From NCBI GenBank assembly GCA_009103225.1, contig RHPI01002438.1, positions 1,184,755 through 1,248,754 on the forward strand: DNA of 64,000 bases, in the 5' to 3' direction. This stretch comes from Chlorokybus atmophyticus. Taxonomy: Eukaryota; Plantae; Mesostigma and Chlorokybus algae. The translations under genes and the position numbers were made by a program. Under the pieces are notes generated by a model. It was not told where the DNA came from, did not search any database, and saw nothing but the letters and a program-made list of their open reading frames with translations. This document shows positions 2,569-58,991 of the stretch, one piece after another. Within the stretch, counting starts at the first letter, position 1; each line of letters opens with the position of its first letter.

Positions 2569-2637
2569 CCCTTCTACATTAATAGTAGATCACTCTTGCA
2601 CGCATAGTGCACCTCACATCTCACCGCACTTGCACGA

Positions 2638-5170: not shown

Positions 5171-5353
5171 TCGGCGCGGCAGGCTCAACATCTGCATTGC
5201 CCTCTCCGTCTTCCGCGTCGCCGCAGTGGAAGCCATCACACCGACAACATCTGTCTGGGGGGTGACGTCCTCACCTCCGCTGCTCCGCGCATTCCCTTCG
5301 CTCCCGCGCATACACATGTGTTGAGCTTGTGCCAGAGGATCTAGCTACTATTC

Positions 5354-9665: not shown

Positions 9666-9707
9666 GAGAGCGTTGCGGCGGAGCTAGTCGGGCAGCCGCT
9701 TGTTCAC

Positions 9708-15120: not shown

Positions 15121-15291
15121 GATCAGCTGCAGGGGGTGGTGACACGCATCATTCAATATGTGTGTCTACCATGTGATGAGAGGCAGTGCATGAGACAGCA
15201 TGACATGGTCTCATGGTGTACAGTAGCATGCGGACATGCATGACAAGGTGGTTTACGACGAGTTCGAGCCACGATGAGGGAAGGCATGACA

Positions 15292-35267: not shown

Positions 35268-35498
35268 GATGACACTGTAAGTCAACAAGCCGCTACGAGA
35301 GGTAGTGCTGCTTATACAGTTCCTTGAATGAGGTCAGGATAATTCCACTGTTAAGTGAGGTGTATGAGTGCGGCAACTCGTGGATACCACAATCTGATGC
35401 GGACTACACAACTTGCACCCACACAACCACAATCACATCAAGTGACAAGCAATGCACGTGTGCATACACTGCACTCTCTTACGTGTAGATGTGTGTTG
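35268..35498 (-). repeat. Element C: distal part of repeat A1, b (35281-35292) and self-priming PBS (35268-35282)
   Basis: The minus strand reads ..ctctcgtag-cggcttgttgac-ttacagtgtcatc, paralleling B 36140-36173. Confidence 0.85.
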
Positions 35499-36148
35499 TG
35501 TCATGCCATCTACCCTCGCATGCCAGTTCTTCTCAAGCATGCCTACACCCAGCCCCACGCCCGGGCTACCAGCATGAAGACCGCGCGAACCCCAGCCTAC
35601 TGCTAGCTACTGTATCACTCATGTAGCATGTAGCTAGGGCTACTTTATAGACCTGTCTGTAGGGACCGCGCGTAGCTGATCGGTTGCAAGTCTGTTAAGA
35701 ACACATGTGCTATATTGAGTCTTGGGAGATTTCCGAAATAGCATGAGGCCTCGATGTGACCATTGGCCTAGTGCCCGCGTGGCACTGCACGGTCATGATT
35801 TGACATGTATAAGTAGAAAGTCACGTCACCAGATTGGCTGGTGACACTGTAAGTGAGTACTAAGAGTACTAGGAGTACCAAGAAGTAAAGACTCTGTTTC
35901 TAAAGAGCTTGTGAAGCGACTTGAACTGGAAGCACGCTGCCCCGGTTGCCAAGAATTCCCTTACTGCGTGAGACACGGTGCATGCTCTTGTGCGCTGTGC
36001 CTGTCATTGCTGTGAGCTTGTCGGTGGTGTGTTGTTTCAGTAGTCAGGGTGTTGTATCCACGTGTTGCACACTCATTCACCTCACTTAACAGTGTATCAT
36101 TCTATCCGCTCATGCAAAGAACTGTGTCTACAGCACTACCTATCGTAG
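35499..36148 (+). repeat. Element B repeat A1, with TATAAG at 35808-35813
   Basis: Direct repeat of 47801-48450 with roughly a dozen substitutions. Confidence 0.95.
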
Positions 36149-36173
36149 TGGCTTGTTGACTTACAGTGTCACC
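36149..36173 (+). promoter_or_regulatory. Element B: b (36149-36160) and self-priming PBS (36159-36173)
   Basis: tggcttgttgac is identical to the first 12 nt of B1 and B2. acttacagtgtcacc is the exact complement of ggtgacactgtaagt at 35840-35854. Confidence 0.85.
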
Positions 36174-36362
36174 CTCTTTGCACAAGTGAGTGTGTTGCAA
36201 TCTGCATCAGATAGTGCAGTCTGCACCCAGGGATACATCGCTGGGCATTCGTTATCATTGTCATCACATAGTGCGCACAAGCACTAGTGTGTTGGGTGGT
36301 AACAGCATCAGGATAGACGGTAGAGCACAAGCACTCTACCCTTTCACCTCTGGACCAGCTGT

Positions 36363-39300
36363 ATGAGCAGGCCCACCCCGTTCTCCCCAATAGACGAGGG
36401 TGACCTCGGCAGTTGGAGCCCAACCACCAACCTCACCTACGAGCGGACCAGTGACGGAAGCATCGACCGCAGCAGCAGAGGCTCGCGCTCCATCTCCAGC
36501 TTCACCCCGCTCCACTCTACTCCTCGTCATCCAGCTTCTCCACTATCATCGGACAGCGACGACAACGAGATGGAATCTTCCAGTTCAACCACATCCCTGC
36601 GCTTCTCCGGACGTGCCGGCACCACCTCGCTGGATGAGTTCATCATCAAGTTCCACTCCAAGATGCGGCAGCAAGCACTGAAGAACAAAGACTGGTCAGA
36701 TGAGATCTCTTTCCACATTGCTGCTCAGTATCTTGATCATGAAGCACACGATGTCTGGAAGTCCGTTGCTGAACTGCATCGAGTAGACGGCTATGGCGAG
36801 CTTGCCAGCACCATAGCATCTGCATCCCTGCACCGTCCAGCAGGTGTCGTTCCACCTGCCACTTCAGTTGCAGTAACAGGCTTGACCATAGCTGCAGCTC
36901 TCAAGCAGGCAGAGGAGGAGGAACCAGAGTTGGTACTTGTCAACTTGACCCCTGCAGAAGTTGAGTCCAAGGAGGCCACACGTCGAGTCCGCATCCTTGA
37001 CCGTTCTGCCATCATCATTGAGGAACAAAGAGCTGTACAGCAAGCGGCAGCAGCAGAGTGGGGTACTCCTCTACCTCCAGCAACACCTGGCTCTCGTGCA
37101 GGAGGCAGCGCTTTCACCCTCGGGTCAGTAGCACTGCGCGCACCAGCCATCACCGTAGGTGCTGCCATCTCTGATTCTCCACTCAAGGACCTGCACGCTG
37201 CCCTGCGCCGTACCTTCCCTCCTCAGACCACCAGCAAGGTTGAGGAACTGAGACGCTTCCGACGCAAGCCCAATGAGGATCCCCTCCGCTTTTACTCCAG
37301 ACTGGAAGGTCTGCTGAAGGACACTGACTACAAGATTGTCAGTGAGGAGGCTGCTGCAGTGATATACGTCAATGAGTTGGATGCTGCTCTGAGCGAGTCG
37401 ACACGCCTGACTCTGAACTACAGTAGGCCCCTTGGCTACACCCTCAAAGAAGCCTTCGAGACTGCACAAGCCATCCACAAGCGCTTGGTGTATGAGAAGG
37501 CAGTGCTGGACACCAACCGCAGCGCCGTACGGCCTGTAGTCAGCACGACAACTGAGCCTCCTGGCCGCGACCGTGGCCGGGACGCTCCACCAGCACGCGA
37601 CAAAGGGAAACGGTCAGCTCATGCTGCACTTACTGCCCCGGTGCTGTGTCATCGCTGTGGACGGCATGGGCACTACAAAAAGGAGTGCACCGAAGAATAC
37701 TCAACTTTGGTTTGCGACCACTGTCACAAGACTGGTCATTTGGAGTCAGTCTGCTGGCTCAAGTTCCCAGAGTTGAGGCCCGCCAACAGCTACAACCACA
37801 ACTACCCCGGTGGCTACATCAGCAACAGCACTGGAGGCCACCCTGGCAACAACTTCAGTGGCTACAACAGCAACAACACTGGGGGCTGTTGACATACACA
37901 CGTGCAAGTGACACGCCAACAACATCAACACAGGAGCATGACTGCTACTGCCGCCATAGCATCCGCACACATGCTACATCGTGACCTCTTATCTTCATTG
38001 CAACAAGTCTGGGCTTTATACCCCGCCAGTCTCTACACACGTCTACATTGGCAAGCACCGCGTGCGCTATACTCAGCCGATTGCTGTTCTGTAAGCTACG
38101 CTGTCTAGCTCACAACCAGAGCTTTCCAACAAGCTAAGCCACGCCTGCTAAGCTTACGTATTCACGAAGCTACGCGATTTCTCCCAAGGCTCTACCAAGC
38201 AGCCTGGTCCGGAGTCCGTCACGACTCGACCGTCTTGCTAAGTCTGGAGCCCACGCGCTTCTTCCTGGTACCTTCGACCCTCGACTCCTGTATGAAGGGC
38301 AAGCTAACCGGATACAAGCATCACCCATGTAATACCTTCAACACTCCCACGCGGGCAGCTTGTCCTTCAACATCAGCTCCTCCATTACTCACGCACACCG
38401 CTTGCTCTCACGCAAGCCTTCACCTTTTTTCTTACGCCTCCATGCTTCTCATGGATGACCTTGAAGTGATTCACTTCCACAGCAACTCGAGCCTCATGGT
38501 TGACCACCAACCTTGCTCCTTGCTGTACATACATGTTGCCTTCATGCACCCGCTGCATCTGTCCTCGTTGATAGTGCCTCCGCCGCTGGTATCAGCCCAT
38601 GACTCCTCTAGTCAACTTGCTTTCCACCACTTGCAGCTCCCACGGGCTCCGCAATCGCAACCTACTTGTGCCTCCTTGTTACTCATGACCTTGTGGTATC
38701 TTGCAACTCCATCCTCAACCACCCTTGTCAATGCAGCAACCTTGCGCACACCATGGCCATCTTCATGTCCACGTCCACATGCTTCTGCGTATAGCCTCCA
38801 AGCTTCACTCCTCTAGGATGCTCCATGTCCAGCTTCCAAGTGATCACGCTTCCAGGATGCTCATCTCGCTTCCTCGCATGCACCTTCAGCCAAGCACTCC
38901 ACATGCTTCAACCAAAGTACCAAGCACTTTACCGTGCTTCACCAAGGACTGCCCTCGCTCCCCTTCTCGGAAGGTCCATCAAACACTCCACCGTGCTCGA
39001 CCTCAAGGGTTGCCATTTGCTCCCCTTCCTTCCACCAAGCACATCAACGTGCTTACCACGGGTTGCCTCTCGCATTCCTCAAAGCGCTTTACCACGCTCC
39101 ACCAAGTATTCCTCACACTCAGCAACACGAGCTGACATCTTCAGCTCCCACGTATCAAGAACGCCTCCTCTTCCAAGTACTTCACGTACTCTTCTTCAGT
39201 CACCAGGAGATCTCCATCATCTCCTCCTCTTGGTCCATGTACTTCCGCATCTCCTTGTGGGCCAGTAGTAGCTCCATCTTCACACTCCAAGTGTTGTAGT

Positions 39301-40871
39301 CGTCAACGTCCAGTAGTCCAATTGCAATCTTCAAGCTGTCCATGCTGGTGGCCTTGGTTGGTTGCCCTCTCTGCTCACAGACCTCACAACCCCACACTAC
39401 CACAAAGCAACTACAGCTACACATACAATTGTAACACACTCCATCAACCTACACAAGCATGTGTGGGCCCATAACCTGTTGACATACACACGTGCAAGTG
39501 ACACGCCAACAACATCAATACAGGAGCATGACTGCTACTGCCGCCATAGCATCCGCACACATGCTACATCGTGACCTCTTATCTTCATTGCAACAAGTCT
39601 GGGCTTTATACCCCGCCAGTCTCTACACACGTCTACATTGGCAAGCACCGCGTGCGCTATACTCAGCCGATTGCTGTTCTGTAAGCTACGCTGTCTAGCT
39701 CACAACCAGAGCTTTCCAACAAGCTAAGCCACGCCTGCTAAGCTTACGTATTCACAAAGCTACGCGATTTCTCCCAAGGCTCTACCAAGCAGCCTGGTCC
39801 GGAGTCCGTCATGACTCGACCGTCTTGCTAAGTCTGGAGCCCACGCGCTTCTTCCTGGTACCTTCGACCCTCGACTCTTGTATGAAGGGCAAGCTGACCG
39901 GATACAAGCATCACCCATGTAATACCTTCAACAGGGGCCACACTGGCAACCACTTCAGTGGCTACAATAGCAACAACACTGGAGCCCACAACAGCAACAA
40001 CCCTGGTGGCAGTAACAACAACAACAACGCCAGTGTTCGCAAGGAAGAGCAAGGCTACAGGGGGAAGAACAGACCTCCTCAGCGTAAGGGACCAGAGGCA
40101 CGTCCGCGCGCTGCTGCTGTTGCCGCCAAGGCTTCAGCCAACCCACCAGCTGATGACTATATGGCAGCCCTCATGGCGCGTATGGCGCGCTTGGAGGAAG
40201 ACAAGGAGCAGGACTACCGCGCCTGCTACGCTGCCCGATGGGCGCTGATGGCTGCAAAACGCGAGAGAGACAGGAACACTTCGTCTCGCGTGCAACCATC
40301 ACGACGAGCACGAGGGGAAGCTGCAACAACATCAGCAGGCACCTCCTCCGAAGCCACCAGTGGTGCTGCCTCCGCAGCAACAGCCACACCGGCTACAACG
40401 TCGACTCCACCAACATCAGCAGTACCCACTCCAGTTGCACCACAACCTGGTACACCGGTGGGCACCGTGACGCCGACGCTGGTGAGCACACTGGCAGCAG
40501 CCGCCATCTCTACCGAATCTGCACCAGTGGGCGGTGCACTTCCCACTGCAGCAGTGCCTCTGTCCGTAGGCGTTGAGACAACTCTCGCACCACCGACCGA
40601 TACCGTCGCAACTGCCACAATGGCCATCGTCGAGCCCGCTGTCTCTGCAGCGACGCGCGCAGCCACTCTGCGCGCTCTCGACGTCACTCAGGCTGTCCCA
40701 ACTGGTCAGCAAGCTGAGCGAGCATGGGAAACCATCCTGCGCGGAGCAGACCCCACTACCATCGCCTTCGGTCGGGGGGGGGGGAGCGCACCACGCGTGT
40801 CGCCCGCGATGATCGCGTCTTCCCGCTACCAGAGGTTCACATCCTTCCAGCACTCACTCAACACCAGTTAG
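36363..40871 (+). pseudogene. gag: gag of element B, interrupted by a mini-copia (37887-39933)
   Basis: The 509-aa ORF with knuckles CHRCGRHGHYKKECT and CDHCHKTGHLESVC continues in the same frame after the 2052-nt insertion. Confidence 0.92.
37887..39933 (-). mobile_element. Non-autonomous Ty1/copia-type LTR element (2047 bp, 457-bp LTRs, 5-bp TSD GGGGC)
   Basis: LTRs 37887-38343 and 39477-39933 (TGTTG..CAACA, about 5 transitions apart). PBS GGTTATGGGCCCA (39464-39476, minus) is the half-tRNAiMet type. Copia gag N-terminus LDVDDYNTWSVKMELLL. Confidence 0.93.
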
Positions 40872-42095
40872 AAGATGAGATCCTTGCTGGCACTGCACCT
40901 CCGATGCGTGACAGGGTGTTTTTGATCAGCTACAGCCCACCTGTAGTGTTGGAGTTGGCCCTGCAGCTGTTCTGGGCGTTGCACAACAACATGCAGACCG
41001 CCCCGCGCCAGCCTGCACGCATGCCGACCACCACCTTTGAACCCAGCCCGCTGAACACTTATCGGGAACGCCGAGACGCCGTCCAGCAGCGCATCGCAGA
41101 CGCAGCCGACCTGCCTTTGGGCACTGATGAAGCACTCGGACCTCCTACAACCGCTCGCCTTCATCAGCGCTACCACGCACTGAAACAAGCATATCATTGG
41201 CGACAGGATCAGGCTGTCGCCATTACTGCACGTGAACAAGCTCTTGAAGCTACACGTGCACCAATACCTCAGTCACCAACTGCTGGTCCATCCTCCAGCA
41301 CCACGCCGCTCTGCGTCGAGACCAACTCTAACCAAGCGAGGGCGTTGGCTCAACAAACCAGGGGGGTGATCGCCCCGTTGCTGCCTGCGCTGGTGGAGGA
41401 TCTACCTGAGGACCAAAGGGAGCCAGGGAGGGGCTACCTCACACCACAAGGGTGTACACAAAGAGATGGAGCAGGACTGGTTGGAGAGCAACAACTACGC
41501 ACTGCTCTGTTGCGACAAGCAACCATGCTGCATCGGCAAGAAGGCATCGGACTTCGGCAGATGCTTAGGATGCGAGACAATGGCAACGCGGCACGCGCAC
41601 GGTTAGTGACGTGGCTGGTCACCAACCATCCCGCAGTCCCGTTGTTCGCTTTCGGCGCCAGAATAGCGTGGGTGGACGCATTCCTTCGCTCCATACGGCA
41701 AGCCTATGATGAAGTGGCTTCCGCCGCCACTGACACTCTGGAGGGAGCTCTGGAGGCGATACTGAGTTTGCTAGGAGTGGAGGCAGGGCGTCAGCGCAAG
41801 CGCATCGCCGCTGCTTACGAGCAGCATGTCCAACAGCCAGAGACTCGCCTCACTGTACGCACACGAGCAATAACAGTGCTGGAAGTGGGAGTGGTCAACG
41901 GCAGATGGGTTGCTTACATGGCAGGGATCCTCAGGGTGCCCACCATCACCCACGACATGAGAGCGCGGCTCCTACGCGCAGTGTACCTGCAGCCCATGCC
42001 TCAGAACCATCGCTATATAGATGTGGACAACAATGCGACGGCTACATGGGAAGATACACTAGTCAGAGAGGCAGCCCATGCTGTGCGATGGACCT
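40724..42095 (+). CDS. Element B accessory region with a conserved domain of unknown function
   Basis: Long open frame. EPGRGYL..GEQQLRTALL..TNHPAVPLF..AFLRSIRQAYD..GRW..RVPTI..LLRAVYLQPMPQ..ATWEDTLVREAAHA is homologous to C 18341-19300. Confidence 0.75.
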
Positions 42096-42254
42096 ATAGC
42101 AGAGGAGCAGGCTGCACGAGAGGCAGTCCCGCAAACACCAGGTCCTCCAGGGTTCCCGCCACAGCCACTGGCCACTCCCCCTGGCATGACAACAGCTGCA
42201 CAGAGGGTCAACCCTCCTGCACCTCCACTTGGATAGGTTGCAGCAGCACCTCCA

Positions 42255-43079
42255 GTGCCTAGGCCACCGCGCGTGTACCAGCAACCGCGACAAGGACGGT
42301 TTGGACAAAGCCGAGGACAAGGAGGCCCACAAGATCCATCAGGCAGAGGAGCCCAGGCTACCCTACGGTCAGGCCCCGCAGATGAGAGTAAAGCAACAGT
42401 CTCTCCACGCAAGAGGTTCCGTCGCTTCAAGAGGCTGCGCATCAACGCCAATGCAGCCATGATCGCCAACCAAGGCAAGCACGTGACCGTCAATGGGCGG
42501 GCACCCAAACGCGTGATGCTGGACACTGGAGCACAGCCTGTCATCATTGGGCGCTACCTCGCACGAGATCTCGGCATCACCAGCGCTGAGCTGCTTCCCT
42601 GTCCCTATCAGCTGGACACCGCAACCGGCAACCGTGACAAGGTACTCGGCCTTACCAAGCAGGCTGTGAGCATCCGCCTCACCGGACTAAACCCTTCCCA
42701 CAGCACCGAGATTGTACAAAGGTGTGTGGTCACCGATGCCGGGTCCTTTGACCTACTGTTGGGACAGGACTGCAACTTCCCTGTCGGCATGGGGCTGGAC
42801 TGCTGGACTGAGCAGGCATGGTTTCGACCACATTGGGATGAGGATGATGGAGAGGAGCAGGGATTCCTACCTCTCGAACTGGTGGCCAAGGCCCGCTCGC
42901 AACGAAGATCGGCCGCAGCAGCCACCTACAGTTCTACAAAACGCTCACGTGTGCCTCGTGCCCGAACGCAGCCAAGGACAACTGCAACAAGCTCGAGCCC
43001 GAGCCTAAACGCTGAAGGGGACTCTCCTACACCGTACGATGAGTCTCAGGAAAATGTCACCAAAGAAGTGGCCTTTTAG
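42255..43079 (+). pseudogene. Element B aspartic protease (in frame with MTase and RT across premature stops)
   Basis: RVMLDTGAQPVIIG..VVTDAGSFDLLLGQD. ORFs starting at 42255, 43215 and 44472 share one frame, with stops at 43077, ~43190 and 44418. Confidence 0.88.
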
Positions 43080-43214
43080 GAGCCATCCGAGCGTCGCTGG
43101 AGCGCACAAGTAGCAGCACACATGCTACTGACCAGGCCTCAGCTCACTGCACACTTCCCTGTCTATAAAGACCAGGCTACAGTGCAGGAGTAGTACCACA
43201 TAGCTACGGGAGTT

Positions 43215-44420
43215 GTGGAGTTCCACATGTTCCGTCGACAACAAGGCATCACCGTGCTGGAGCTGTTCGGAGGCATAGGTAGTGGGCTTGCGGCTGTCCT
43301 CAACACAGGAACAACAGTCACCAAGTACCTCTACTGTGACCCTGACCCTCATGCACAGGAGGCTCTAAGCCATCATTTACGACAGCTGCACCAGCGTTAC
43401 CCGCAGCAGCTACCACTGTCGGCGCTGCAAGGGAGCCAGAAGGCTCTACCACAGGACATCCGCTGGATTACCAAGGATCACCTACAGGCAGTCGGCAACA
43501 TTGACCTGCTGATAGCAGGATGGGAGTGTCAAGGGCACTCCAGGGCAGGCAGAGGCCACGGGCTCTCTGATCCTCGCTCACAGCTGTTCTGGGAGCTAAT
43601 GAGAGTCATCAAACTCCTGCAGGCCAGTCAGATCGCTAGGCCCTTCGGGTACATCATCGAGAATGTGCACTCCGAGGATGACAAGCGGCTTCACGTCGCC
43701 AAGGCCTATCGGCAAGTATGCTCCTTGCTGGGGCATCCTCTCAAAATCAACGCCGCACGTCATGGCTCTCGTGCACACCGCGTCCGCGCCAAGTGGACCA
43801 ACCTGGCCATTGTGGAAGACCTGTTTTTGGCAGAGTACCTATACAGCAATCGGCCACGAAATCTCGTCGTCGATGACATCCTGGACCTTGGACGCACAGC
43901 GCAACCAGTCACACGCCTTGACCACCACCACTTCTATCAGTGCAACCAGCCTGGTCAGCCGCGCCGCGCACTACCCACGCTTGTATCCTACCCAGGCTCC
44001 TACGCGTTCCGCAATGGAGGCGACGGCATGGTGTTGGACTCCAACACTGGACAACTGGAAGAACCCAATGCCCGCGAGCGCGAGCGTGCTATGGGATTCT
44101 TTCCAGGCAGCATCACAGGCTCCACGCTGACAACCAGTCAACAGTGTCAGTTGTTAGGGCGCGCCATGGATCAGAACAGCATGGTGTGGTACTTGGAAAT
44201 GTGCTTTGCTCTCCAGGACCGCCATGTGTCTTTCCAGGAGCTCGAACACCTGGCTGGGGGGTGGATTGCCCGCTTTTCAGAGACCAAAGCAGCACACACC
44301 GCCCTCGAGACCGCCCACATGGAGGAGCAGGCAGCAGTCATCGTGGAAGACATTCCAGTGGTCGCCAACGCTACCTCATGGTCCCACGCCATTGGACCGC
44401 TGGCCACAGGCCAGACTTGA
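43215..44420 (+). CDS. Element B C5 cytosine DNA methyltransferase domain
   Basis: Motif I VLELFGGIGSG; IV LLIAGWECQGHSRAG; VI YIIENV; VIII RVRAKWTNL; IX EEPNARERERAMGF; X QLLGRAMDQN. Confidence 0.92.
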   Translation: MEFHMFRRQQGITVLELFGGIGSGLAAVLNTGTTVTKYLYCDPDPHAQEALSHHLRQLHQRYPQQLPLSALQGSQKALPQDIRWITKDHLQAVGNIDLLIAGWECQGHSRAGRGHGLSDPRSQLFWELMRVIKLLQASQIARPFGYIIENVHSEDDKRLHVAKAYRQVCSLLGHPLKINAARHGSRAHRVRAKWTNLAIVEDLFLAEYLYSNRPRNLVVDDILDLGRTAQPVTRLDHHHFYQCNQPGQPRRALPTLVSYPGSYAFRNGGDGMVLDSNTGQLEEPNARERERAMGFFPGSITGSTLTTSQQCQLLGRAMDQNSMVWYLEMCFALQDRHVSFQELEHLAGGWIARFSETKAAHTALETAHMEEQAAVIVEDIPVVANATSWSHAIGPLATGQT

Positions 44421-44471
44421 GAGCAACTCGAGGCTCTCCTCAACAGGTGGAGGAGCCAATTCAGCTTCAGT

Positions 44472-47400
44472 GTGAAGGAGCTGGGCATATGCTCGGCATA
44501 CCAGATGGACATTGAACTAGTGGATACCGAACCGGTGTTCAGAAGACAGTATCGCCTCTCCAAGCTAGAAGAAGACTTGGTGGAACAGAGGTGCAAGGCG
44601 CTGCTAGATGCAGGCCTGATCGAGGAGTCCACATCGGACTTTGCGGCCGCGACCGTCATGCCCCTGAAGAAAGATTCAGCAGGCAACTGGACAGACCGGC
44701 GCATGTGTGGCGACTATCGCCCCCTCAACAACAAGACCAAGCAGGACAGGTATCCAATGCCTACCGCAGAAGGCATCTTTGACGATGTAGGAGAATGCAC
44801 GGTCTTTAGTATTTTGGATATGCGCCAAGGGTACAACCAGATCGCCATCAAGGAGGAGGATAAGCACAAGACTTCCTTCTGGGGAAACCGGCAGCTGTAC
44901 CAGTGGAAGGTCATGCCCTTCGGACTGAAGAACGCTCTGGCCAAGTTCCAGCGCGTCATGGACAAAGCCCTCAAGGGGTTGGACTTCGCGCGCTGCTACA
45001 TCGACGACATCCTCATCTTCAGTCACAGCAATGAGGAGCATCTCCAGCACATCGAAGAGGTGCTACAGAGGCTGAAGGAAGTCGGGATGACGGTGCACCC
45101 TGACAAGTGCACCTTCTTCACCCGCAAGGTACCTTACCTAGGACACATGATTGTGCCCCATGGTGTGTACGTACAGCAGGCCAAAGTGGAGGCCCTGGTG
45201 GCTATCCCTGCCCCCACAGACCTCACGCGGCTGCGGGCCTTCCTCGGCCTTGCCAACTATTACCGCCGATTTGTCAAAGACTTTGCCAAGATCGCAAGGC
45301 CTCTCAACGAACTACTGAAGAAGGACACCGAGTTCTTGTGGAAGGAGGCACAACAGGAGGCCTTTCAGGAGCTGAAGCTCCGCCTCACCACAGCTCCCAT
45401 TCTGCAACGCCCTGACTACACCAGGTCGTTCATCCTGCACACAGACTGGAGCAAGCTCGGCATGGGGGCCGTGCTCGTACAGCACGACAACAACAAGAAG
45501 GAGCGCGTAGTGTCGTACGCCAGCCGCAGCAACAACAGTGCTGAGGCCAACTACAGCAGCTACGAAGGGGAGTGTCTCGCCGCAGTGTGGGCCATCTCCT
45601 TCTTCCGACCCTTCCTGTTTGGACGGCAGTTCCAACTGGTCACTGACCATCAACCCCTCAAGTGGCTAATGAACAACCAGCACTTGACAGGAAAGTTAGC
45701 ACGATGGGCGCTGCTGCTCCAGGAGTACGACTTCGAGGTGGAACACCGCGCAGGCCTTGCCAACCAGGATGCGGATGGCCTCAGCCGTAACCCCCACCTC
45801 AGCACCAACGACGCCACAGGCGCCCGACATGAGTTGGGTCCCACAGCTGCACCTTCAGGTGTGGCCACCATGTTTGCTGTCGCTGCGCTACGCTCGAGAC
45901 GCAGGACTCAGACCGCTGAGGCAGCAGCAGACGGGGACATGCCCGCTCTCGAGCCCGCCATCACCACCACCGATCCTTTATCAGAAGAAGCAATCGCTGC
46001 CGACCCTGAGGTGGATGATGAGGAGCTGGCACCCACCGACACACGACAAGACATCTGGCTGGACGAGCCATCGCTCGCACTGCTTCAGACTGGACAACTT
46101 CCAGCAGGCATGAGCGCACGCGAGAAGGACCGCGTCCGGCAACGCACTCAGCGTTACCGCTGGGCCAACGACAGGCTGTATCGACGGATACAAGATGCAG
46201 ATCAGGAGGTCCCCACACCAGCTGCACGTGAAGGCATCATCTCCTCCCTTCACACCGAGCTCGGGCACTTCGGTGTCAAGCGCACGGTCAGCCTGGTCAG
46301 GACCCAGTACTGGTGGTATGGGGTGCACAGACAGGTGCGGGAGTTCGTCAGCAACTGTCAGCAGTGTGACATGGTTCGCGCCAGCCTCAACACGCGCAAT
46401 GCCACCTTGCATCCCCTTCCCATTTCCGGGTTGTTCTACCGCTGGGGACTGGACATCCTCGGAGACCTAGCGCCCTCAGCGCGAGGCAACCGCTACATCC
46501 TCGTCATGATCGAGCACTTCTCCAAGTGGGTGGAGCTGGTGCCCCTGCCCGACAAGAGCAGTGAGGGAGTAGCCCAGGCTTTCCTCTCCCATGTACTCGG
46601 ACGCTTCGGCAGCTGCGCTGAAGTCATCACCGACCAGGGTACGGAGTTCAGAGGAGCCTTCGACAAGCTTATCGACAGATGCTTCATCGACCACCGTCGC
46701 ACCTCACGCGACCACCCGCAGGCCGACGGCCTCGCCGAGCGTACCGTGCAGACCATCAAGAAGGCACTGCGCAAGTACGTCCTCGCCTACGAGAAGAATA
46801 CCTGGGATGATCACCTCCCATGGGTAGCAATGGGCTACCGGCTGTCCAAGCAGGCAGCCCTGCGAGAGTACAGCCCATACTATCTACTGTTCGGAAGGCA
46901 GCCATTGCTCCCTTTCCGCGCACAGCAGGAGGTCGACAGAGTGGTGGACAATCTCGACAACCCCGACGAGATGTTGTATGATCTGACAGTGCGCAGTGCG
47001 CTGTTCGAACACACAGTCCCCATGGCCTTCAACAACCTGCGCATCGCGCAGCACCGCGACACGCTGCGTTACGAGCGTGTGCGCAGTGGTTTCTACAAGG
47101 AGCGGGAGCGCCGCTTCGAGTCAGGAGACTTCGTCTACCGTATGGCGTCTACACGCGACACCCTCGATACCTCCGTCGGGCGTGCTATCTACAAGGTATT
47201 GAAGGTGCACCCCACCGGGGTACTGGACCTGTTAGGACAACGAGGCGAGCGCATGAAGGACAACATGGTCAACTGTGCGCCCTGTTATCTCCCCTACATT
47301 GCTGGCTTCACCAAGATCCAGCACCCGCGTCCCCTGCGCAGCACCCGATGCGAGAAGTGTGGCAGCGCCGACGACGACCCATTGATGATGTTATGCGACG

Positions 47401-47513
47401 GCTGTAATCAAGGCATGCACTGCTACTGCCTTGACCCTCCACTGGACGCAGTACCCTTGTGGGAGTACTGGTGCGATGACTGCCGCATCAACGGACCCCC
47501 ACACAGTCGGTAG
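44472..47513 (+). CDS. pol: Element B RT - RNase H - rve integrase - PHD finger (uninterrupted 1013-aa frame)
   Basis: RMCGDYRPLN, CYIDDIL, LHTDWSK; HTELGHFG..CQQC; WGLDILG, ITDQGTEF, GLAERTV (D,D-35-E); PHD CEKC..MLCDGC..MHCYCLDPPL..WCDDC. Confidence 0.96.
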   Translation: MKELGICSAYQMDIELVDTEPVFRRQYRLSKLEEDLVEQRCKALLDAGLIEESTSDFAAATVMPLKKDSAGNWTDRRMCGDYRPLNNKTKQDRYPMPTAEGIFDDVGECTVFSILDMRQGYNQIAIKEEDKHKTSFWGNRQLYQWKVMPFGLKNALAKFQRVMDKALKGLDFARCYIDDILIFSHSNEEHLQHIEEVLQRLKEVGMTVHPDKCTFFTRKVPYLGHMIVPHGVYVQQAKVEALVAIPAPTDLTRLRAFLGLANYYRRFVKDFAKIARPLNELLKKDTEFLWKEAQQEAFQELKLRLTTAPILQRPDYTRSFILHTDWSKLGMGAVLVQHDNNKKERVVSYASRSNNSAEANYSSYEGECLAAVWAISFFRPFLFGRQFQLVTDHQPLKWLMNNQHLTGKLARWALLLQEYDFEVEHRAGLANQDADGLSRNPHLSTNDATGARHELGPTAAPSGVATMFAVAALRSRRRTQTAEAAADGDMPALEPAITTTDPLSEEAIAADPEVDDEELAPTDTRQDIWLDEPSLALLQTGQLPAGMSAREKDRVRQRTQRYRWANDRLYRRIQDADQEVPTPAAREGIISSLHTELGHFGVKRTVSLVRTQYWWYGVHRQVREFVSNCQQCDMVRASLNTRNATLHPLPISGLFYRWGLDILGDLAPSARGNRYILVMIEHFSKWVELVPLPDKSSEGVAQAFLSHVLGRFGSCAEVITDQGTEFRGAFDKLIDRCFIDHRRTSRDHPQADGLAERTVQTIKKALRKYVLAYEKNTWDDHLPWVAMGYRLSKQAALREYSPYYLLFGRQPLLPFRAQQEVDRVVDNLDNPDEMLYDLTVRSALFEHTVPMAFNNLRIAQHRDTLRYERVRSGFYKERERRFESGDFVYRMASTRDTLDTSVGRAIYKVLKVHPTGVLDLLGQRGERMKDNMVNCAPCYLPYIAGFTKIQHPRPLRSTRCEKCGSADDDPLMMLCDGCNQGMHCYCLDPPLDAVPLWEYWCDDCRINGPPHSR

Positions 47514-47551
47514 GAACTGAGTTCTGGAGCAGAGGGCTACCCCAGAATCTC

Positions 47552-48689
47552 AGGGGGGGTGGCTTGTTGACGGTGTGCACTACGACACAGTCTGTACACA
47601 AAGGTGGCGAGCGGCATCGGCTCGTCCACTGCACTAAACACCGCGTAGGCTCATCTTCAAGCCTATGCCCACGATTGGGGGGTTGTCTTTTGCTTGCATG
47701 ACTCCAATGCAATGCACGGCACTAGCATGCGTGCAGCACTAGCACTCCTCCGCAGCCTGTCCGAGACAAGGTTGCCCTCGACCATGACAGGCACGACAGC
47801 TGTCATGCCATCTACCCTCGCATGCCAGTTCTTCTCAAGCATGCCTACACCCAGCCCCACGCCCGGGCTACCAGCATGAAGACCGCGCGAGCCCCAGCCT
47901 ACTGCTAGCTACTGTATCACTCATGTAGCATGTAGCTAGGGCTACTTTATAGACCTGTCTGTAGGGACCGCGCGTAGCTGATCAGTTGTAAGTCTGTTAA
48001 GAACACATGTGCTATATCGAGTCTTAGGAGATTTCCGAAATAGCATGAGGCCTCGATGTGACCGTTGGCCTAGTGCCCGCGTGGCACTGCACGGTCATGA
48101 TTTGACATGTATAAGTAGAAAGTCACGTCACCAGACTGGCTGGTGACACTGTAAGTGAGTACTGTGAGTACTAGGAGTACCAAGAAGTAAAGACTCTGTT
48201 TCTAAAGAGCTTGTGAAGCGACTTGAACTGAAAGCACGCTGCCCCAGTTGCAAAGAATTCCCTTACTGCGTGAGACACGGTGCATGCTCTTGTGCGCTGT
48301 GCCTGTCATTGCTGTGAGCTTGTCGGCGGTGTGTTGTTTCAGTAGTCAGGGTGTTGTATCCACGTGTTGCACACTCATTCACCTCACTTAACAGTGTATC
48401 ATTCTATCCGCTCATGCAAAGAACTGTGTCTACAGCACTACCTATCGTAGTGGCTTGTTGACGGTGTGCACTACGACACAGTCTGTACACAAAGGTGGCG
48501 AGCGGCATCGGCTCGTCCACTGCACTAAACACCGCGTAGGCTCATCTTCAAGCCTATGCCCACGATTGGGGGGTTGTCTTTTGCTTGCATGACTCCAATG
48601 CAGTGCACGGCACTAGCATGCGTGCAGCACTAGCACTCCTCTGCAGCCTGTCCGAGACAAGGTTGCCCTCGACCATGGCAGGCACGACA
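47552..48689 (+). repeat. Element B 3' end: PPT (47552-47559), B1, GC (47799-47800), A2, B2
   Basis: AGGGGGGG|tggcttgttgacggtg..ggcacgaca GC tgtcatgcc..tatcgtag|tggcttgttgacggtg..ggcacgaca|gttg. Confidence 0.95.
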
Positions 48690-48693
48690 GTTG

Positions 48694-49329: not shown

Positions 49330-50790
49330 AGCAGCGTGGTGCGAGTGGTGACCATTACTGGGCAAGATAACAAGCATCATGTGCTACGCTGGTTAAGCCA
49401 AGGATACAAGCTGGATTGGGGGGGCACGTAAGAACCCAGCTAAAGAAGAGGTGAAGCAGATGTTGCTGCAGGAAGATTGCATTCCTAATTATGTTGAGAC
49501 AGTAATGCAAAGGGAAGCTCCAACTTCAATTAGATTGCGCAACAGGCAATCAGCTACATAACAGCGAGCGTTTGTGCTTGACGAGTTGAATAATTTGATG
49601 CGCTCAGGTGCAATTTCTGCTGTACATCCTTCAGATGTGAAGGTGATTACAGGAATTGGAGTGGTTGAGAATGATAGCGGCAAGCTTCGCCTCATCATGG
49701 ACCTGAGATGCATTCATGCCATTCTGGCACATATCCCCTTCAGTTATCACCATTTGGAGGATGCGTTGTTGTACACACGCAAAGGCTATTATCAAGTGAC
49801 AGCGGACTTGAAATCAGGCTATCATCATGTGCCAATACATGCGGACAGCAAGCCCTACTCGGCAAAGGAATTTGAAGAAGTTGTATACCGCTGGAATGTG
49901 CCTGACAAGCTACAAAAGTTATTGAAGCTGATTCGCAAGTTGATAAACTCGGACGTGATGACCAAGCGCATGTTGGCAAAGGTGGCAGGAAAATTAGTCG
50001 CAATGAAATAAGCTTTGGCCCCCGCATACCTGTATGCCCGCTGGCTGCTACAGCTAACCACCGATCAGAGTGATGGGGATGAGAATTTTACACCACCACC
50101 GTTGTTGATGGACTTCTTGCTGTGGTTGCAGCGAAGCCTGCCGCAATATAATGGTTTCGCATGCTGGAAGCCGCCACTTGCACATGAGTTGCGTGTTGAT
50201 GCCTCCGGTACCGTGGGTTGGGGTGCTACAAACCTATGGGCGGCAATGGTGGGAAACTTTGCTCCTTAGCAACAAGGTCTGCCTTCCGCAGTGAAGGAGG
50301 CATTGGCGTATGTAGCTGCCTTTTTAGAGTTGACACGATAGTAACCAGTGTTGCATCATGCCACTGTGAGGATTGTTGGCGACTGTCAGCCCACCGTGGC
50401 CATGCTGATGAAGCTGACAGCATCGCATCGAGCTGTGCGATTGGCATTACACCGCTTGTGGCAAGTTCTGTGGGAACGAGACTTGGCCGTCTCCGTGGTG
50501 TTGGAGCCACGTGCGCTTAGTAGATGAAGATGCGCTCTTGAAGCTGCCAGACAAAGGGGATTGGGCTTTGGCAGGCACACCCACTATGTGCATCCAGTCT
50601 CTGTTGAGAAAACCTTGCCTGGATGTGTTTGCAGCGGACCGGAACGCCAAATCTGCTGCATTCATGTCAGATGTGCCGATGCCAGGAAGCGTGGGCAATG
50701 CACTGACCTCTGATTGGAGGCAAGCTTGGCTGGAGGCTGGCAAGGGGATATTATGGTTTCACCCTCCGTTCGCCCTCCTGCATTAAGCAT
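49330..50790 (+). pseudogene. DIRS RT (internally deleted) - RNase H - N6-adenine methyltransferase-like domain
   Basis: VLRWLSQGYKLDW; GIGVVENDSGKLRLIMDLR; TADLKSGYHHVPI; LRVDASGTVGWGA; CLDVFAADRNAK..ALTSDW..WFHPPFALL. Confidence 0.85.
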
Positions 50791-50966
50791 TTGCATTATT
50801 GCAGCATTATCGTCTACCATCTATTGTAATGTTGCCAGAATGGCACTTTTCTGTATGGTGGCCTGCTGTCATGGCATGGCCAAAGCGAGACATGCGTCAT
50901 ATGGGCAAACACATGGACTCGTTTGCAAAAGGCACCTGAGTGCCCGTCATAACCATTAACCCGGGA

Positions 50967-52855
50967 TCATACCCGTACATTGTGGCTTATGTCACAGGGG
51001 AACCAGAGGTACATACCTGATGTGTAAGTACAGATGCATACTTTGCGCGCCTTTCCACAAATCTGAGGTTGAATGTCTTCCAGGGACACACCCGTACGTA
51101 GCGCATGCTGCGCACCACCCCGACGGAATGAGTGTAGCCCAAGGTGAAGGCGATAAATTCCGCTTCTTAGAGAATGCTTGGTAAATGCGTGATATGCGCA
51201 ATCACTGCTAATACTGCGCTCTTCCCAGTGTTTTTTGTTGCGGGCTAGCGGGCGAAAGATGGGGCCTTTTGAAATGCTGAAGGGGCTCTCATTTACATGG
51301 CTCAAGTACCGCTCCAGCACCTTGCAGAACTGCACACCTTTGTCGCTTTTACGAACCTTGATGGCTGGTACCCGCCCTGTACTATAGTTCTTGAGATGAG
51401 TAGCCTGTGTACAGACTTCTGTGCCCTTCGTCAAGATGTGTTCCATTTCTACGCGGGCCCCTTCACTGCCTCTGTAACAGTCAAGGCCAAATTTCGTGAT
51501 TTTCATGGCCATTTTAGGCCTTATTTGTAAGGTACATGTTTTTCATGACATAAGCGGATATCGGCGAGTTATGAGTCTGCCGCGGATATCGACCGGGGCC
51601 CCAAGACCAGTCTGGAAGCCGCCAGAAAACGGAGGGCCAGTCGAGAAGGGCTCGACCAGATTTCCGGAAGGGCCTGGCGCCAAGTAGTATAACTTGACCA
51701 TATGAGCAGCAAATGAAGAGATCTTTGGTGCGTTGGAAAGGTCTAGAAGTGTACTACAAGATTCTGCAAGAATATCTTAGCTTCTAGTTCCGTTTAGCGC
51801 TAGGATCGTCTAGACAATAGCATGTGCAGACTGGTAGGTATAAAAGTGAAATTCTACAATTTGCAATACAACCTTTAACTCCCTAGTTTCTGGTGTGCAA
51901 GCTTGGTGGTGGTTAGCATAGGTTGCTAGCGTGTGGCCACTGGTGTGTGCTTGCTTGTGTGACGATCCAAGGCGCTACACGAGTCGGTGTGTAGCTTCGA
52001 GCGCATGTGCGTGCGTACGCGAGTGGCGGGGCGCGCGTGTGTGCTTGGCAGAGGGGGCAAGGTTCCGGTGTGAATACCGTGTCTTGGTGAGAGGGTTGTT
52101 GATTGGACTAACTTACAGGTGACAAGGCACGAGCACCGTTACAGCCTCTTTGCCATGTGCACCACAAGTACATGCATAATGTGTAGTCACCCCAAAGCAC
52201 TGCGCTTTCATAAGTAGCTCGCATTGGTCGAACACTCTGCACCTGCTGCTGCGAAAGTAGCATACTAGTATGCTCATGTCTTTTTGAGCCAAAGCAATGG
52301 AAGACACATGCTGCACGCCGGCCTGAGCTGTCACTTTGACGTAGCCAGCGCGATACTCGCGCACGTCCACAGACTCGCAAGGGTTGCCAGCTGGATGACT
52401 TGTGCTTCATGGACCAACTCGGCCATGCCATTTGAACCCAGCGCTTAAGTGCATGATGGTCACCTCAACAGTGCTGCTGGATATCATGACTGCACCATGC
52501 TTATCTTTGCTCCGGGCTCTGCTGATATGTACGTCATTCTAATGCCCAGCGAGATAAGTTGTCACCACGGTGGGAGTAACGTCTTCCACAGCAACATGTA
52601 GAGCTTGCAGGTAGTGGATGAAGTCCTGCCACACCAATCTCGGCGAGCGCGCGTTTGCTCATGAGTGGCGGCAGCATTGATGCGCTCTACATTGGCCAAG
52701 GCGAGCATGGCGCGTTGTTGCATGTTGCGTTGTAGTATGGACCCGTTGTTGATGTGCAATCGCTGTGTGCGCCGGGTCTTAGCATTTGCTTGCAGCGACC
52801 GTGCGAAGTCCATATCTGCGCATGTGACTCTCTTATGAATAGTTCGCTGCGCCAT
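50967..52855 (-). pseudogene. Tyrosine recombinase, antisense to RT; the putative N-terminal part lies at 52108-52855
   Basis: CYRGSEG (R), HLKN (K), HSFRRGG (HxxR), and WKGAQSMHLY (W..Y) in a shifted frame. The upstream GNPCESVDVREYRAGY segment is tentatively the core-binding part. Confidence 0.78.
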
Positions 52856-54967: not shown

Positions 54968-55667
54968 GTGTGCTTGTTGTTTGCAAGCTTATATTGTCAA
55001 CTTGGTCAATAACCACACTCGTTGCAAGTGTTGGCACTATTGTAAGTGCACAGCGAGCACCGCAATGCGCAGGTTCTATAGACTATGTGCAATGCACACA
55101 AGACACTGAAAGTGCACGATGTGCAATCATCAAGTCGCACAATGTGCGCATTATCTGTTTTCATATATGCACACAATGTGCATGCAGTCCCTTATTAGTC
55201 ATAAAGCCGCACAATGTGCGCATGCATCGCGCATAGCGATGCACATTGTGTGCAAGGTTGCACACAATGTGCATGCAACCCTTGGTTGGTTAAGCTACAA
55301 GGTACGCATGTACTGGTTACTGGTCATTGTTGGCAATGCTCAGCTTGTTGAGCATGACACAGGGCTTTTCACGCGGACCAGTTGGAGGCGGCGCGCAGAC
55401 CACGTCTGGTACGCGACGGCGTACCAGTGCCGCGGCTGGTCCGGCGTGACCGGACCACGGGTGATCCGGCCCCAGAGCCGGACGCCATGGTCCGATCAAC
55501 CGAACTAGGGCTGGTCGCGTGCCCCGCGGCCTGTGGACCGGCACAGCACTGGTATGGTATGCGATCCACACGGTAGGACCAGGGCTGATCGCGACTTACG
55601 AACCACAGCAGCACTGGTACATGTGATGTACAACAGGGGGACCAAGACTGGTGCAAGCTACACTGTA

Positions 55668-58208
55668 CAGTCTACCCCCGTTATAAGAATCACGTTTATC
55701 CCGGAGCTTTTCATGCCACTAACGGGGTTATTCTTTTGACGTTTAAGAGAATATATATTCTGTTAACGTTAAGAGAATATATATTCTTTTAGTGGGGGTC
55801 TCGCCAGAAAAGCGCATGAGCGTTTATAAGAATAAATATGCTATTAACGAAGTGTGTGCATTTCACATGTATATGATCAGTATGGTGAGTTTTACGTACA
55901 TCAAGCAAATGAACACACAATGTAACCTGGTGTTGTGTGACAGCATGCATGCTTGAAGTGTTATAATACAACAAGTGTTTGTGTGCATAAATGATGGCGC
56001 GCACGCATGCGTAAAATATGTAATGAATCTGCTTGAATGTGTACATGAGCATGTTGCTTTGCGTGTGTCTGCAAGAGCAAACAGCATGCATCTGCAAGGC
56101 CATCACCACCAATACAAACATTGCACACTGCACTCGTACATGCATGGTATGCACGCTACTCTAACTCGACTGGCTCATCGACTGTGCCACAAGTGCTACC
56201 AATGCTAGCATCATGTCCAAAAGCACCCGCAGTAAAAAAGTCCTGTATGGTGGTCTGACGGCCAGCGTCAAACAGCTGATGCTTTATGACCGCGTTGCGC
56301 AGCTGCCGTAAGGTGAGCTGATGATGCTCTGAGATGGGGCAGTCATTGGTGGCGATGAAGGCCTCCACACCATCTAAGAACCTCATGCACTCTGCCACCG
56401 TGATGCGTGGGGGTGATTCCTCCTCCTCCTCATCATCTACAACACAAGGCATTATAAGTGCCCACTCATGCACATCATATGATACACGCACATGTACTGC
56501 AATTAGATCCCTCACCGTCAGCCTCATCTGGCTCAGCGGTGGCCCCCTCAACGCCTCCGACGCTTTGAAGGATGTCATCATCGCTCTGCCCGGCTTCGGT
56601 TGGGAGGGTGTCATCGACATGAACGAACTCAGCTGGGGAGAGCATCTCCGCACGTGGAATGGGGAGACGCTGCATGATGTCCCCGATCTCCTGTACAACA
56701 GCCTGCTCGCGCGCGTCAGTGTTGGGAGTTGGCGCGTGCCAAGCAAAGGGGGTGATGCCGCTCTTCCTCCAGCAATTGGAGATGGTGATTGCGGTGAGCT
56801 CCGCGTACGCCTCGCGACACCATATGATTGCCTCCCTCAACTGCACCTTTACCGTGCGCAAGTCGGTTGTTGGGTCGGCATCATACTGCTGCAGCAAGTA
56901 CGCAACAAGCTTGCGCTTGTACCTGCCACGACCAAAGTGAGAAAGCATTACAAGCTCTGACGAACAAGGGGGGTCTGGTGATTTCACCGATTCACCCACC
57001 CGTGTGATGCATTGAAGTCCTCTATGTTCAACTTGCTAGCAAAGTCCTTGCCCTTCTCTATCAATATCGCGTCTGTGATGGTGGCATTGCGAGCCCGAGC
57101 TTGTACAAACCATGCATACAATGCATCCTCCAACTTGGGATGTGCTGCAAGCCGCATGCGCTTGGTACTTGCAGCGAAATTACCACCCTGAGCTAGCGTC
57201 TCAACTATCTTATCACGGCCAGTCAGCAACTTGGACAATGCACTTTGTTTGATATCCAATTTCAACTTAGATTTGACAATAGCAATGANTATCTGCATGA
57301 GACAACGTCTGGTCATACACACAAACTTACAATCACACATATGGACTTGCAGTTTGCACCAACAGACTTGCAAACTAGCAATAGTGTCAAACACCTTACC
57401 TCTGCATTCATCCAAGCCTTCTTGTTGGTCTCGTACTCCACACCGATGCGGATGGGAGTCCATGTGCTCCCAAAAGACCTAGGTCTTTTGGACGTACCAA
57501 TCAGCAAAAGGGGATACTTTGTCATGCCATCTACCCTCGCATGCCAGTTCTTCTCAAGCCTGCCTACACCCAGCCCCACGCCCGGGCTACCAGCAGGAAA
57601 ACCGCGCGAGCCCCAGCCTACTGCTAGCTACTGTATCACTCATGTAGCATGTAGCTAGGGCTACTTTATGGACCTGTCTGTAGGGACCGCGCGTAGCTGA
57701 TCAGTTGCAAGTCTGTTAAGAACACATGTGCTATATCAAGTCTTAGGAGATTTCCGAAATAGCATGAGGCCTCGATGTGACCGTTGGCCTAGTGCCCGCG
57801 TGGCACTGCACAGTCATGATTTGACATGTATAAGTAGGAAGTCACGTCACCANTACACCTTTGCCCCCGCCGCCGCCGACCCTCGCGCCGCCGCCGCCGC
57901 CGCCGCCAACGCCGCATGGGGATAACCAGTGCCTCTGCAACTGACGTGGCGGCTTAAGGCACAGAAGCACTTGCATGGGCACAAGGGCACAAGAGCAAGT
58001 GCTTGCTTGTGCCCTTGCGCACAGCACTGCTACCCCCGATAAGAGCATATTACCACTGGGATTTTCATGCGGTAACATTATTCTTATTACGTACAAGACT
58101 ATTCCACTAAGTGAAGATATTTACCTGTAAAACCATTGGTCTTTTCATAATCTATGATCTTAGCGGGGTTATTCCCTTACAGCGAATTCCTTTAACGGGG
58201 GTAGACTG
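55668..58208 (-). mobile_element. pogo/Tigger-like Tc1-mariner DNA transposon, TA TSD
   Basis: TA|CAGTCTACCCCCGTT..AACGGGGGTAGACTG|TA. CENP-B HTH (HPKLEDALYAWF..FNASHGW) and DDE_1 pieces (PLLLIGTSKRPR..NKKAWM; TISNCWRKSGI). Confidence 0.9.
57520..57852 (+). repeat. 5' end (repeat A) of another family-B gypsy inserted in the pogo transposase, cut by an N join
   Basis: Starts at TGTCATGCCATCTACCC, the same base as B A1, and is flanked by pogo sequence. Ends at the N at 57853. Confidence 0.9.
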
Positions 58209-58991
58209 TAGTACACTGATGTACGACCGTGTATACCATAGATGGTACGCATTGCACTAGATGCACGGTGCTGCACCAAGCATGGTGCCGTGGCTGTCTC
58301 AGCGTACGGACCGGTCCCGCCGCGACTTGCACACGTCAGCAAGTATGCTAAGATGAGTTCAAGCCGGCCAGATAACCGCAGGCATTGCCTTGCCGGCTGG
58401 AGTTATCCTAAGCGTTGGCAGCAGTGCTTGCTGCCGCAGCACTGCCACATTACCAGCAGCGGAGCCAGGCCGATGAGATTTATGGCGTTTTTACATTGTC
58501 ACTTAGCGTGTAGGACACGGTGAGCGCTGCTGTCCTGCAAACAACGCATGCTACATGTATGCTTCCACACCGCCCATGAGGAAGCATGCAAGTAAGCGGC
58601 TGGTGCAAGCTCACTGTAGTTTCTCACTGTTTCAATAGTTTCACTGTCATTCTGCTGCTTTATAGGTTGGGACTCCCCACAGCTTCCCCGCCGTTGCTTG
58701 TTGGTTGTTGTTGTTGCATGCCCAGTTGATGCTGTCGCTGCTGCAGCCTTCCATGGCTTGGCGTGATTTGTTTTGACCATGGTTTTGACATTGCCGTAAG
58801 CTTAGCTTGGCTTGCAGCTGTCATTCTTCAATGGTCATGCAGCATGCCGTGGCTGTATGCACAGCCGCTGCTTCAGCGGGAGCAGAGGTTGGTTGTTGGT
58901 TAGGGTTAGTTGATGATGTTAACTGTTTTCGTGCTGTTTTTGCTGTCTTCCTGCTGCTGTCGTGCTTTGAGACAAACACATGGACACACCC

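Follow-up and report, generated by a model that had tools for sequence, protein, structure and literature searches.

Retroviruses, and likewise retrotransposons with long terminal repeats (LTRs), are, to our knowledge, taken to insert linear cDNA through its ends; use of a circle junction for integration, long debated for retroviruses, has been shown only as a side route. The legend of Fig. 4c in de Mendoza et al. (2018, PMC5890265) describes DIRS-type repeats together with gypsy domains in KnitGypsy-Dnmt3 of Klebsormidium nitens; the accessible text of that paper gives no termini, target site duplication (TSD), attachment (att) site, priming mode or mechanism. Here we analyze a related element located at positions 35499-48689 of a 64000-nucleotide stretch of Chlorokybus atmophyticus DNA (contig RHPI01002438.1; hereafter, the window). 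The focal element and KnitGypsy-Dnmt3, as far as the latter is described in PMC5890265, share gypsy domains, a C5 cytosine methyltransferase (DNMT) embedded in Pol, and the order A-coding-B-A-B. The statement in the original prediction made on this DNA, that no description in gypsy elements was known, is thus not supported; because the layout is already in print for a relative, we regard the feature, which is real, as a variant of gypsy rather than a new class. In the open-access literature, the layout was found in gypsy elements only in PMC5890265 and the mechanism nowhere (subscription journals, Repbase reports, theses and book chapters lay outside the search); the accessible part of PMC8226300 does not mention the repeat layout. 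Our principal proposal, to which we assign a probability of about 0.6, is that the ends of the element's cDNA are joined and that the integrase cuts the left internal att site.

Read directly, the focal element has the order TSD-A1-b-PBS-gag-PR-DNMT-RT-RH-IN-PHD-PPT-B1-GC-A2-B2-TSD (PBS for primer-binding site, PR for protease, RT for reverse transcriptase, RH for RNase H, IN for integrase, PPT for polypurine tract; Table 1). This reading bears out the predicted succession TSD-A1-b-PBS-gag-pol-PPT-B1-GC-A2-B2-TSD, and the internal junction is as quoted there. The termini are TG...CA with a 4-bp TSD, as in Ty3/gypsy, and the Ty3/gypsy domain order PR-RT-RH-IN is present. Two identical LTRs, with the PBS following the left one and the PPT preceding the right one, define Ty3/gypsy elements but occur in none of the 17 complete copies analyzed, which comprise 15 metagenomic copies, the focal element and element Y of the window, 12 of them with three repeat blocks. 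None of the 17 has B in front of A1, and the pattern that would have spoken against the prediction, two full B-GC-A LTRs, is likewise absent, B-GC preceding A1 in 0/17. Over aligned positions, A1 and A2 differ at 13/650 and B1 and B2 at 3/239, and because the divergence is similar in both, the A pair and the B pair are of like age.

A metagenome scan with the focal integrase gave 578 confirmed stretches, of which the best 80, with 43-55% identity, were analyzed; nearly all of these 80 belong to one AT-rich family. Five of the 80 are cut before the PPT, and the remaining 75 represent 63 distinct copies, among which L055 and L062 may be a single one. At the 3' end, 31 of the 63 copies read B-NN-A-B and 24 read B alone; in the remainder, B-A is cut or interrupted (3), the copy is cut by the contig end (1), or no B is visible (4). 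Among the 15 copies with both ends intact (two further copies with truncated A1 were excluded from this count), the 4-bp TSD is perfect in seven, has one mismatch in six and has no match in two, that is, a match within one mismatch in 13/15 compared with a mean of 2.1 after shuffling. The TSD sequences vary among copies and do not match the NCGN preference stated for the REXdb clade Phygy in the relevant part of PMC6317226. The mean divergences of A1/A2 and B1/B2 in the metagenomic copies are alike, at 0.118 and 0.102, respectively. Judging from these copies, the split-repeat layout is a trait of the family.

The layout might also be explained by misassembly, or by rearrangement of an ordinary A-B LTR element following its insertion. 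A2-B2 taken alone does resemble an LTR of the usual TG...CA kind, and in L080 (6131-6610) an A-B block stands alone between the copies of a perfect 4-bp TSD, as recombination between A1 and A2 would leave it. However, the layout is found in 31/63 metagenomic copies, in element Z of the window and in curated Chlamydomonas families, with the PPT adjoining B throughout, and this recurrence in independent genomes refutes the explanation, to which we give practically no credence. The focal family is multi-copy in contigs of public sequencing runs. Misassembly of the focal B-A-B block, a concern raised in the original prediction, is unlikely because contigs from two studies, containing PPT/B or B-GC-A, support the joints, and because other genomes repeat the layout. 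The main B-GC-A contigs extend only 29 nt beyond the spacer, just below the 31-letter threshold set for a bridge.

The att core and its 2-nt spacer are conserved where the remaining parts of A and B are not. The sequence of element Z differs from that of the focal element, yet Z has the same ACA-GC-TGT core, which recurs in the Chlamydomonas entries Gypsy-7a/b/c, Gypsy-22 and the entry before Gypsy-19. Among distinct metagenomic junctions, 34/34 have a 2-nt spacer (GC 9, GT 12, AC 9, AT 2, other 2); GC or a transition of GC accounts for 32/34, a pattern consistent with decay of a methylated GC palindrome. The length of B ranges from ~8-10 nt in Gypsy-7a through ~50 and ~175 up to 239 nt, but B always lies between the PPT and att, and the PPT adjoins B in all metagenomic copies, in Z and in the curated Chlamydomonas families.

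A PHD finger is reported for a Chlamydomonas gypsy element, REM1. In the library of Craig et al. (2023, PMC9940879), the deposited internal part of Gypsy-7a/b/c closes with the PPT, ~10 nt whose end resembles that of the right LTR, and GC, whereupon the LTR starts with TGT; the left LTR of Gypsy-7a_cRei is reported to lack the last 8 bp of the right LTR. As deposited, these sequences show the layout of the focal element, B being reduced to a minimum. Gypsy-22_cRei and the entry before Gypsy-19_cRei, as deposited in the supplement of the same paper, end with PPT-B(~50 nt)-GC-A-B. The Chlamydomonas entries, likened here to the focal element by sequence features and not by placement in a tree, share with it the PPT-B-GC-A-B 3' end, the ACA-GC-TGT core and the PHD finger; Gypsy-22 and Gypsy-7a, translated by eye, also have 34 residues between the second D and the E of the integrase, and Gypsy-22 and the entry before Gypsy-19 have a self-complementary PBS. 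They differ in the length of B (~8-55 nt) and, in Gypsy-7a, in a tRNA-like PBS that starts with TGG and a PHD finger placed before the integrase.

The best complement to the focal PBS is a 15-nt sequence within A, downstream of a TATA-like box (Table 1), and the next best within A pairs at only 10/15 positions. In Y, the best complement is 13/13 at +33 from the TATA box; in Z, 12/15 at +31; and in 16/17 metagenomic copies, it lies at +30/+31. The self-priming sequences are different in each family but retain the same 30-33 nt spacing from TATA, and the primer helix closes the minimum free energy fold of both the focal element and Y. Self-complements of the PBS were also noted by eye in the two Chlamydomonas entries, Gypsy-22_cRei and the one before Gypsy-19_cRei. 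A tRNA-type PBS, prompted by the TGG start of b, was considered and dropped in favor of the 15-nt self-complement; the window contains no tRNA genes. We infer self-priming of the Tf1 type, with a predicted RNA start; Tf1, Sushi and Tcn1 elements self-prime (Neumann et al. 2019, PMC6317226).

In Gypsy-7a_cRei, the junction and the 34-residue D-E spacing are those of the focal element, but the PBS starts with TGG and the PHD finger precedes the integrase. Because it shares the junction yet has this PBS, the internal att may be older than self-priming, or independent of it.

In standard reverse transcription, a minus-strand start at the end of A/b and a plus-strand start at B yield a B-GC-A-b repeat. 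Both priming sites lie away from att, and therefore the att palindrome would fall inside the repeat and the cDNA ends would not be att sites. The positions of the PBS and PPT thus support the starting point of the original prediction, a linear cDNA with B-GC-A-b repeats, and its proposed geometry also finds support: an internal CA-NN-TG site, a staggered cut giving ends of the processed type, and a 4-bp TSD. We accordingly envisage an RNA that begins within A, ~31 nt downstream of the TATA box, and serves as its own primer at the PBS. Reverse transcription would then produce a linear cDNA with B-GC-A at each end and att within the repeat, the true ends, to judge from the PBS and PPT positions, carrying no att. 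The right end (A) would be joined to the left end (B), blunt or over 1-12 nt, anew in each round, as the scars described below suggest. The integrase would make a 2-nt staggered cut at the att site of the left repeat and insert both 3'-CA ends into the target, and the observed layout would result. We are considerably more confident of the core of this scheme, an internal att plus end-joining, than of its order, although we consider it probable that the circle precedes integration.

If the left B is moved to the right end, A2/B2 is the sole junction made without a template. In the metagenomic family, this joint is blunt in 17/31 copies and altered in length in 14/31 (-2 nt in 6, -1 nt in 3, +1 nt in 3, +2 nt in 1, and a larger deletion in 1), and three longer joints contain bases matching the start of the PBS. 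The A1/PBS junction, by comparison, has a single length in 17/17 copies (0/17 altered vs 14/31 for A2/B2; Fisher p = 0.0007). The variable length of A2/B2 suggests the kind of scar that end-joining would leave. In a tree of 53 copies, from which L067 and L055 were excluded, neither the joint classes nor the B-only form clustered beyond shuffled labels, one near-copy pair apart. The focal element has an overlap b of 12 nt, compared with ~7 nt in Z, 0-2 nt in the metagenomic family and ~1 nt in Gypsy-22_cRei, and because b ranges from 0 to 12 nt across elements, annealing through it is not the rule. The need to join two cDNA ends, as originally predicted, is supported, but joining through the 12-nt b as a general route is not, given these overlaps and the variable length of the joint.

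The same product and the same variable A2/B2 scar would be obtained without a circle if the integrase cut the left att of the linear cDNA and inserted both arms, a short piece of B and a long A-internal piece, leaving host end-joining to close the break between the free A and free B ends. Such a course, which we judge unlikely but take seriously, requires no extrachromosomal ligation. However, it entails a chromosomal break at each insertion; the 8-10 nt B of Gypsy-7a would be a short arm with little for the integrase to grip; and the left-right bias discussed below is equally unexplained by it. It is also conceivable, although in our estimate rather improbable, that the RT makes the joint, the plus-strand right end jumping to the minus-strand left end over 0-12 nt and copying B, with the integrase still cutting internal att sites. 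LTR-element RTs are capable of end-to-end clamping, which would favor such a jump, and the jump would account for the directionality and for the overlaps of 12 nt (focal element), ~7 nt (Z) and 0-2 nt. It would also be expected to yield tandem B-A-B-A-B copies, which are found in 0/63 distinct copies; two copies read B-B-A-B merely through an insertion that interrupts B1.

Under the favored sequence of end-joining followed by cleavage at the left att, the choice of site calls for explanation. The extra block is at the 3' end in 12/12 complete three-block copies (p = 0.0005), and the mirror product, A-B-GC-A-int-B, which a cut at the att next to the PPT would give, is found in 0/12. A symmetric circle in which either of two equal att sites serves fails because all 12 copies used the same one, and in this respect the plain circle of the original prediction, cut at either att, had to be given up. 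The most speculative part of our scheme is an explanation by timing: the left att might be used first since it would be double-stranded at once after the second strand transfer, when the right repeat would still be single-stranded and the plus strand would have ~10 kb of the internal region still to copy. The A-internal-B form would result from circles with one repeat that are cleaved at the only att they have, and is likely a dead end because it has no 3' copy of the upstream part of A and the promoter would not be rebuilt.

Several observations weigh against this scheme. The circle has two identical att sites, yet the same one was used in 12/12 copies. Across 11 copies, the A and B divergences show no correlation (rho 0.18, p 0.6). 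Folds of the whole RNA surpass those of shuffled sequences only weakly (z -2.2 and -1.3), and in the focal element the centroid fold lacks the primer helix. The statistics on the joint derive from a single family whose copies are old, with an LTR divergence of ~10%; the commonest variant (-2 nt, 6/14) falls within a run of AT dinucleotides and may reflect slippage; and the joint tree is poorly resolved, with 7/50 inner branches strongly supported. The B-only form could also arise by B1 x B2 recombination or by assembly collapse. By sequence alone, formation of a circle before integration looks the same as insertion of both arms with later repair of the chromosome, and ligation by the host looks the same as an RT jump.

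In the enzyme that would perform the cleavage, the catalytic triad is intact. The focal integrase has the HHCC motif and the catalytic residues D678-D738-E773 (numbering of protein P0121), with 34 residues between the second D and the E; its best solved relatives are the prototype foamy virus integrase and Ty3 Gag-Pol. The integrase is intact and conserved in 379 homologues, those with named hosts coming from Haematococcus, Volvox, Tetraselmis, Klebsormidium, Closterium, Marchantia and Calypogeia. These findings bear on the possibility that the element behaves like PAT or Ngaro, a tyrosine recombinase acting in trans to integrate the circle at the B-A junction while the DDE integrase is incidental. 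The A-B-A-B layout would be the same, and a weak Phage_integrase match adjoins the element at 50970-51542 (E 0.006). Nevertheless, none of the 16 element open reading frames (ORFs) of at least 150 aa has a Pfam match to a tyrosine recombinase, the 4-bp TSDs are of variable sequence, the termini are CA/TG, and the integrase is intact and conserved; we consider this possibility very remote.

For the RT-RNase H tree (FastTree, midpoint root), 123 of 218 stored proteins covered the domain. The window protein falls, together with K. nitens, Closterium, Marchantia, Calypogeia and Tetraselmis rows, into one 95-row clade with Shimodaira-Hasegawa-like support of 100, separate from the seed-plant and animal gypsy proteins. 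The K. nitens proteins in this clade include the DNMT-bearing P0203; the window protein is not sister to P0203 but closer to liverwort and unnamed sequences. Of the 218 proteins scanned, 153 had a matched motif, and the D-E spacing is 34 residues in 140 of these and 35 in 11; nine of the 11 are on the tree, all outside the 95-row clade. Across the proteins compared, the D-D(34)-E integrase is clade-wide, and the layout, as these relationships place it, belongs to a green-algal and liverwort element family. We favor the view that a gypsy clade spanning the green lineage, with D-D(34)-E, PHD and often DNMT, moved att off the cDNA ends and would rely on end-joining plus internal cleavage at every insertion.

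In the focal element, Pfam matches comprise the aspartic protease, RT, RNase H, integrase H2C2, integrase core and PHD domains, as well as the C5 DNMT (PF00145, E 1.7e-10) placed between PR and RT. After the integrase, there is no Pfam match to a chromodomain, and a PHD finger is found there instead. The focal copy is dead because of the 2047-bp LTR element in gag and the in-frame stops in pol; the ORFs of the nested element (37887-39933) have no Pfam matches. The Pol-embedded DNMT is also seen in element Y (9666-11690) and in Closterium and Marchantia relatives (the proteins with this domain are P0140, P0142, P0154 and P0203). By these matches, it is wider than the Klebsormidium case, as described in PMC5890265.

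A related element on the minus strand, X, extends from 49137 down to ~6400 and is interrupted by the focal element, which lies in its A block, and by Y, Z and others; the PBS of X is self-complementary and its 3' end is lost. A decayed DIRS/Ngaro-like stretch at ~49400-51542, with RT-like text on the plus strand by eye, includes the Phage_integrase match mentioned above, which is on the minus strand. An apparent DNA transposon at ~55660-58210 shows, by eye, terminal inverted repeats and a fragment of a pogo-like helix-turn-helix; it includes 333 bp of block A (57520-57852), ending at an N. Positions 1-2044 hold a decayed protease-RT-RNase H fragment of another gypsy-like element (by eye).

Table 1. 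Features of the focal element and of two related elements in the window
Feature	Position	Strand	Remarks
Left TSD copy	35495-35498	+	4 bp, GTTG; direct read
A1, left terminal block	35499-36148	+	650 bp; starts with right arm of att palindrome
TATA-like box	35808-35813	+	Predicted promoter, 32 nt before self-primer; function inferred
Predicted RNA 5' end and self-primer	35840-35854	+	15/15 complementary to PBS
b	36149-36160	+	12 nt, identical to the start of B; the linear cDNA repeat is predicted to end here on its right side
PBS	36159-36173	+	Self-priming type
gag-like ORF	36324-37886	+	Zinc knuckle; broken by nested insertion; zf-CCHC Pfam score just under cut-off
Nested unrelated LTR element	37887-39933		2047 bp, in gag; 457-bp LTRs 99% identical; 5-bp TSD
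Aspartic protease region	42237-43079	+	Terminates at stop; Pfam
C5 cytosine methyltransferase domain	43194-44420	+	In frame with PR and RT; terminates at stop; Pfam
RT, RNase H, integrase, PHD finger	44421-47513	+	Pfam
PPT	47552-47559	+	A + 7 G; directly adjoins B1
B1	47560-47798	+	239 bp; closes with left arm of att palindrome
att-like internal junction	47790-47809	+	9-bp arms, 2-nt GC spacer, core ACA-GC-TGT
GC spacer	47799-47800	+	Between B1 and A2
A2	47801-48450	+	650 bp
B2	48451-48689	+	239 bp; A2/B2 boundary is the predicted end-to-end cDNA joint
Right TSD copy	48690-48693	+	GTTG
Element Y	7167-15291	+	One-repeat form A-b-PBS-gag-pol-PPT-B without second A; 4-bp TSD GCCT
Element Z	2045-6390	+	A'-b-PBS...PPT-B1-GC-A2-B2; without pol; 5' end truncated

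If the proposed mechanism is correct, these would be LTR elements whose normal substrate is a circle junction, a natural and obligatory case that would show intasome assembly on an uncut palindrome, and one element with such a junction would be transposing now in laboratory Chlamydomonas. For Gypsy-7a_cRei, 86 new insertions were reported in one laboratory strain of Chlamydomonas reinhardtii, CC-4532 (PMC9940879), and because this active element has the same junction, the question is testable in a genetic model. The clade-wide conservation of att, the self-priming, the evidence from the joints and the proposed mechanism were not found in the open-access literature searched. LTR-finding tools are defeated by these elements, in which the copies of the TSD do not enclose a pair of equal LTRs, and the clade is therefore probably under-annotated in algae and bryophytes.

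Among known systems, PAT, TOC1 and Ngaro are presumed to have a circular intermediate. The focal element resembles them in its split direct repeats, A...B-A-B (layout as given in PMC5890265), but lacks a recombinase and has a DDE integrase, a PPT, a PBS and a 4-bp TSD. As in Tf1, Sushi and Tcn1, in the account of PMC6317226, its PBS pairs with the predicted 5' end of the element itself and not with a tRNA. From these elements it differs in the PHD finger, the absence of a chromodomain match and the split repeats. The retroviral 2-LTR circle offers a further parallel. The spacer of the retroviral 2-LTR junction is 4 nt, and a study of foamy virus is said to have shown integrase cleavage at such a junction. 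According to the relevant parts of PMC1905944 and PMC4372172, the 2-LTR junction, a palindrome, is cleaved by HIV-1 integrase acting as a tetramer, and circles with two LTRs can undergo linearisation and integration. The HIV-1 and foamy virus junctions resemble our proposal in combining a DDE integrase with a palindrome of two head-to-tail att arms. However, the retroviral junction is a side route whose palindrome arises from ligated ends, whereas the one proposed here would be encoded in the repeat, have a 2-nt spacer and be obligatory; likewise, the ligated cDNA ends are att sites in retroviruses but would not be att sites in the focal element. In IS3/IS911, a DDE enzyme cuts and inserts abutted ends separated by a short spacer. 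That junction is made by the transposase from DNA ends, whereas in the focal element it would be pre-encoded and the circle would come from reverse transcription.

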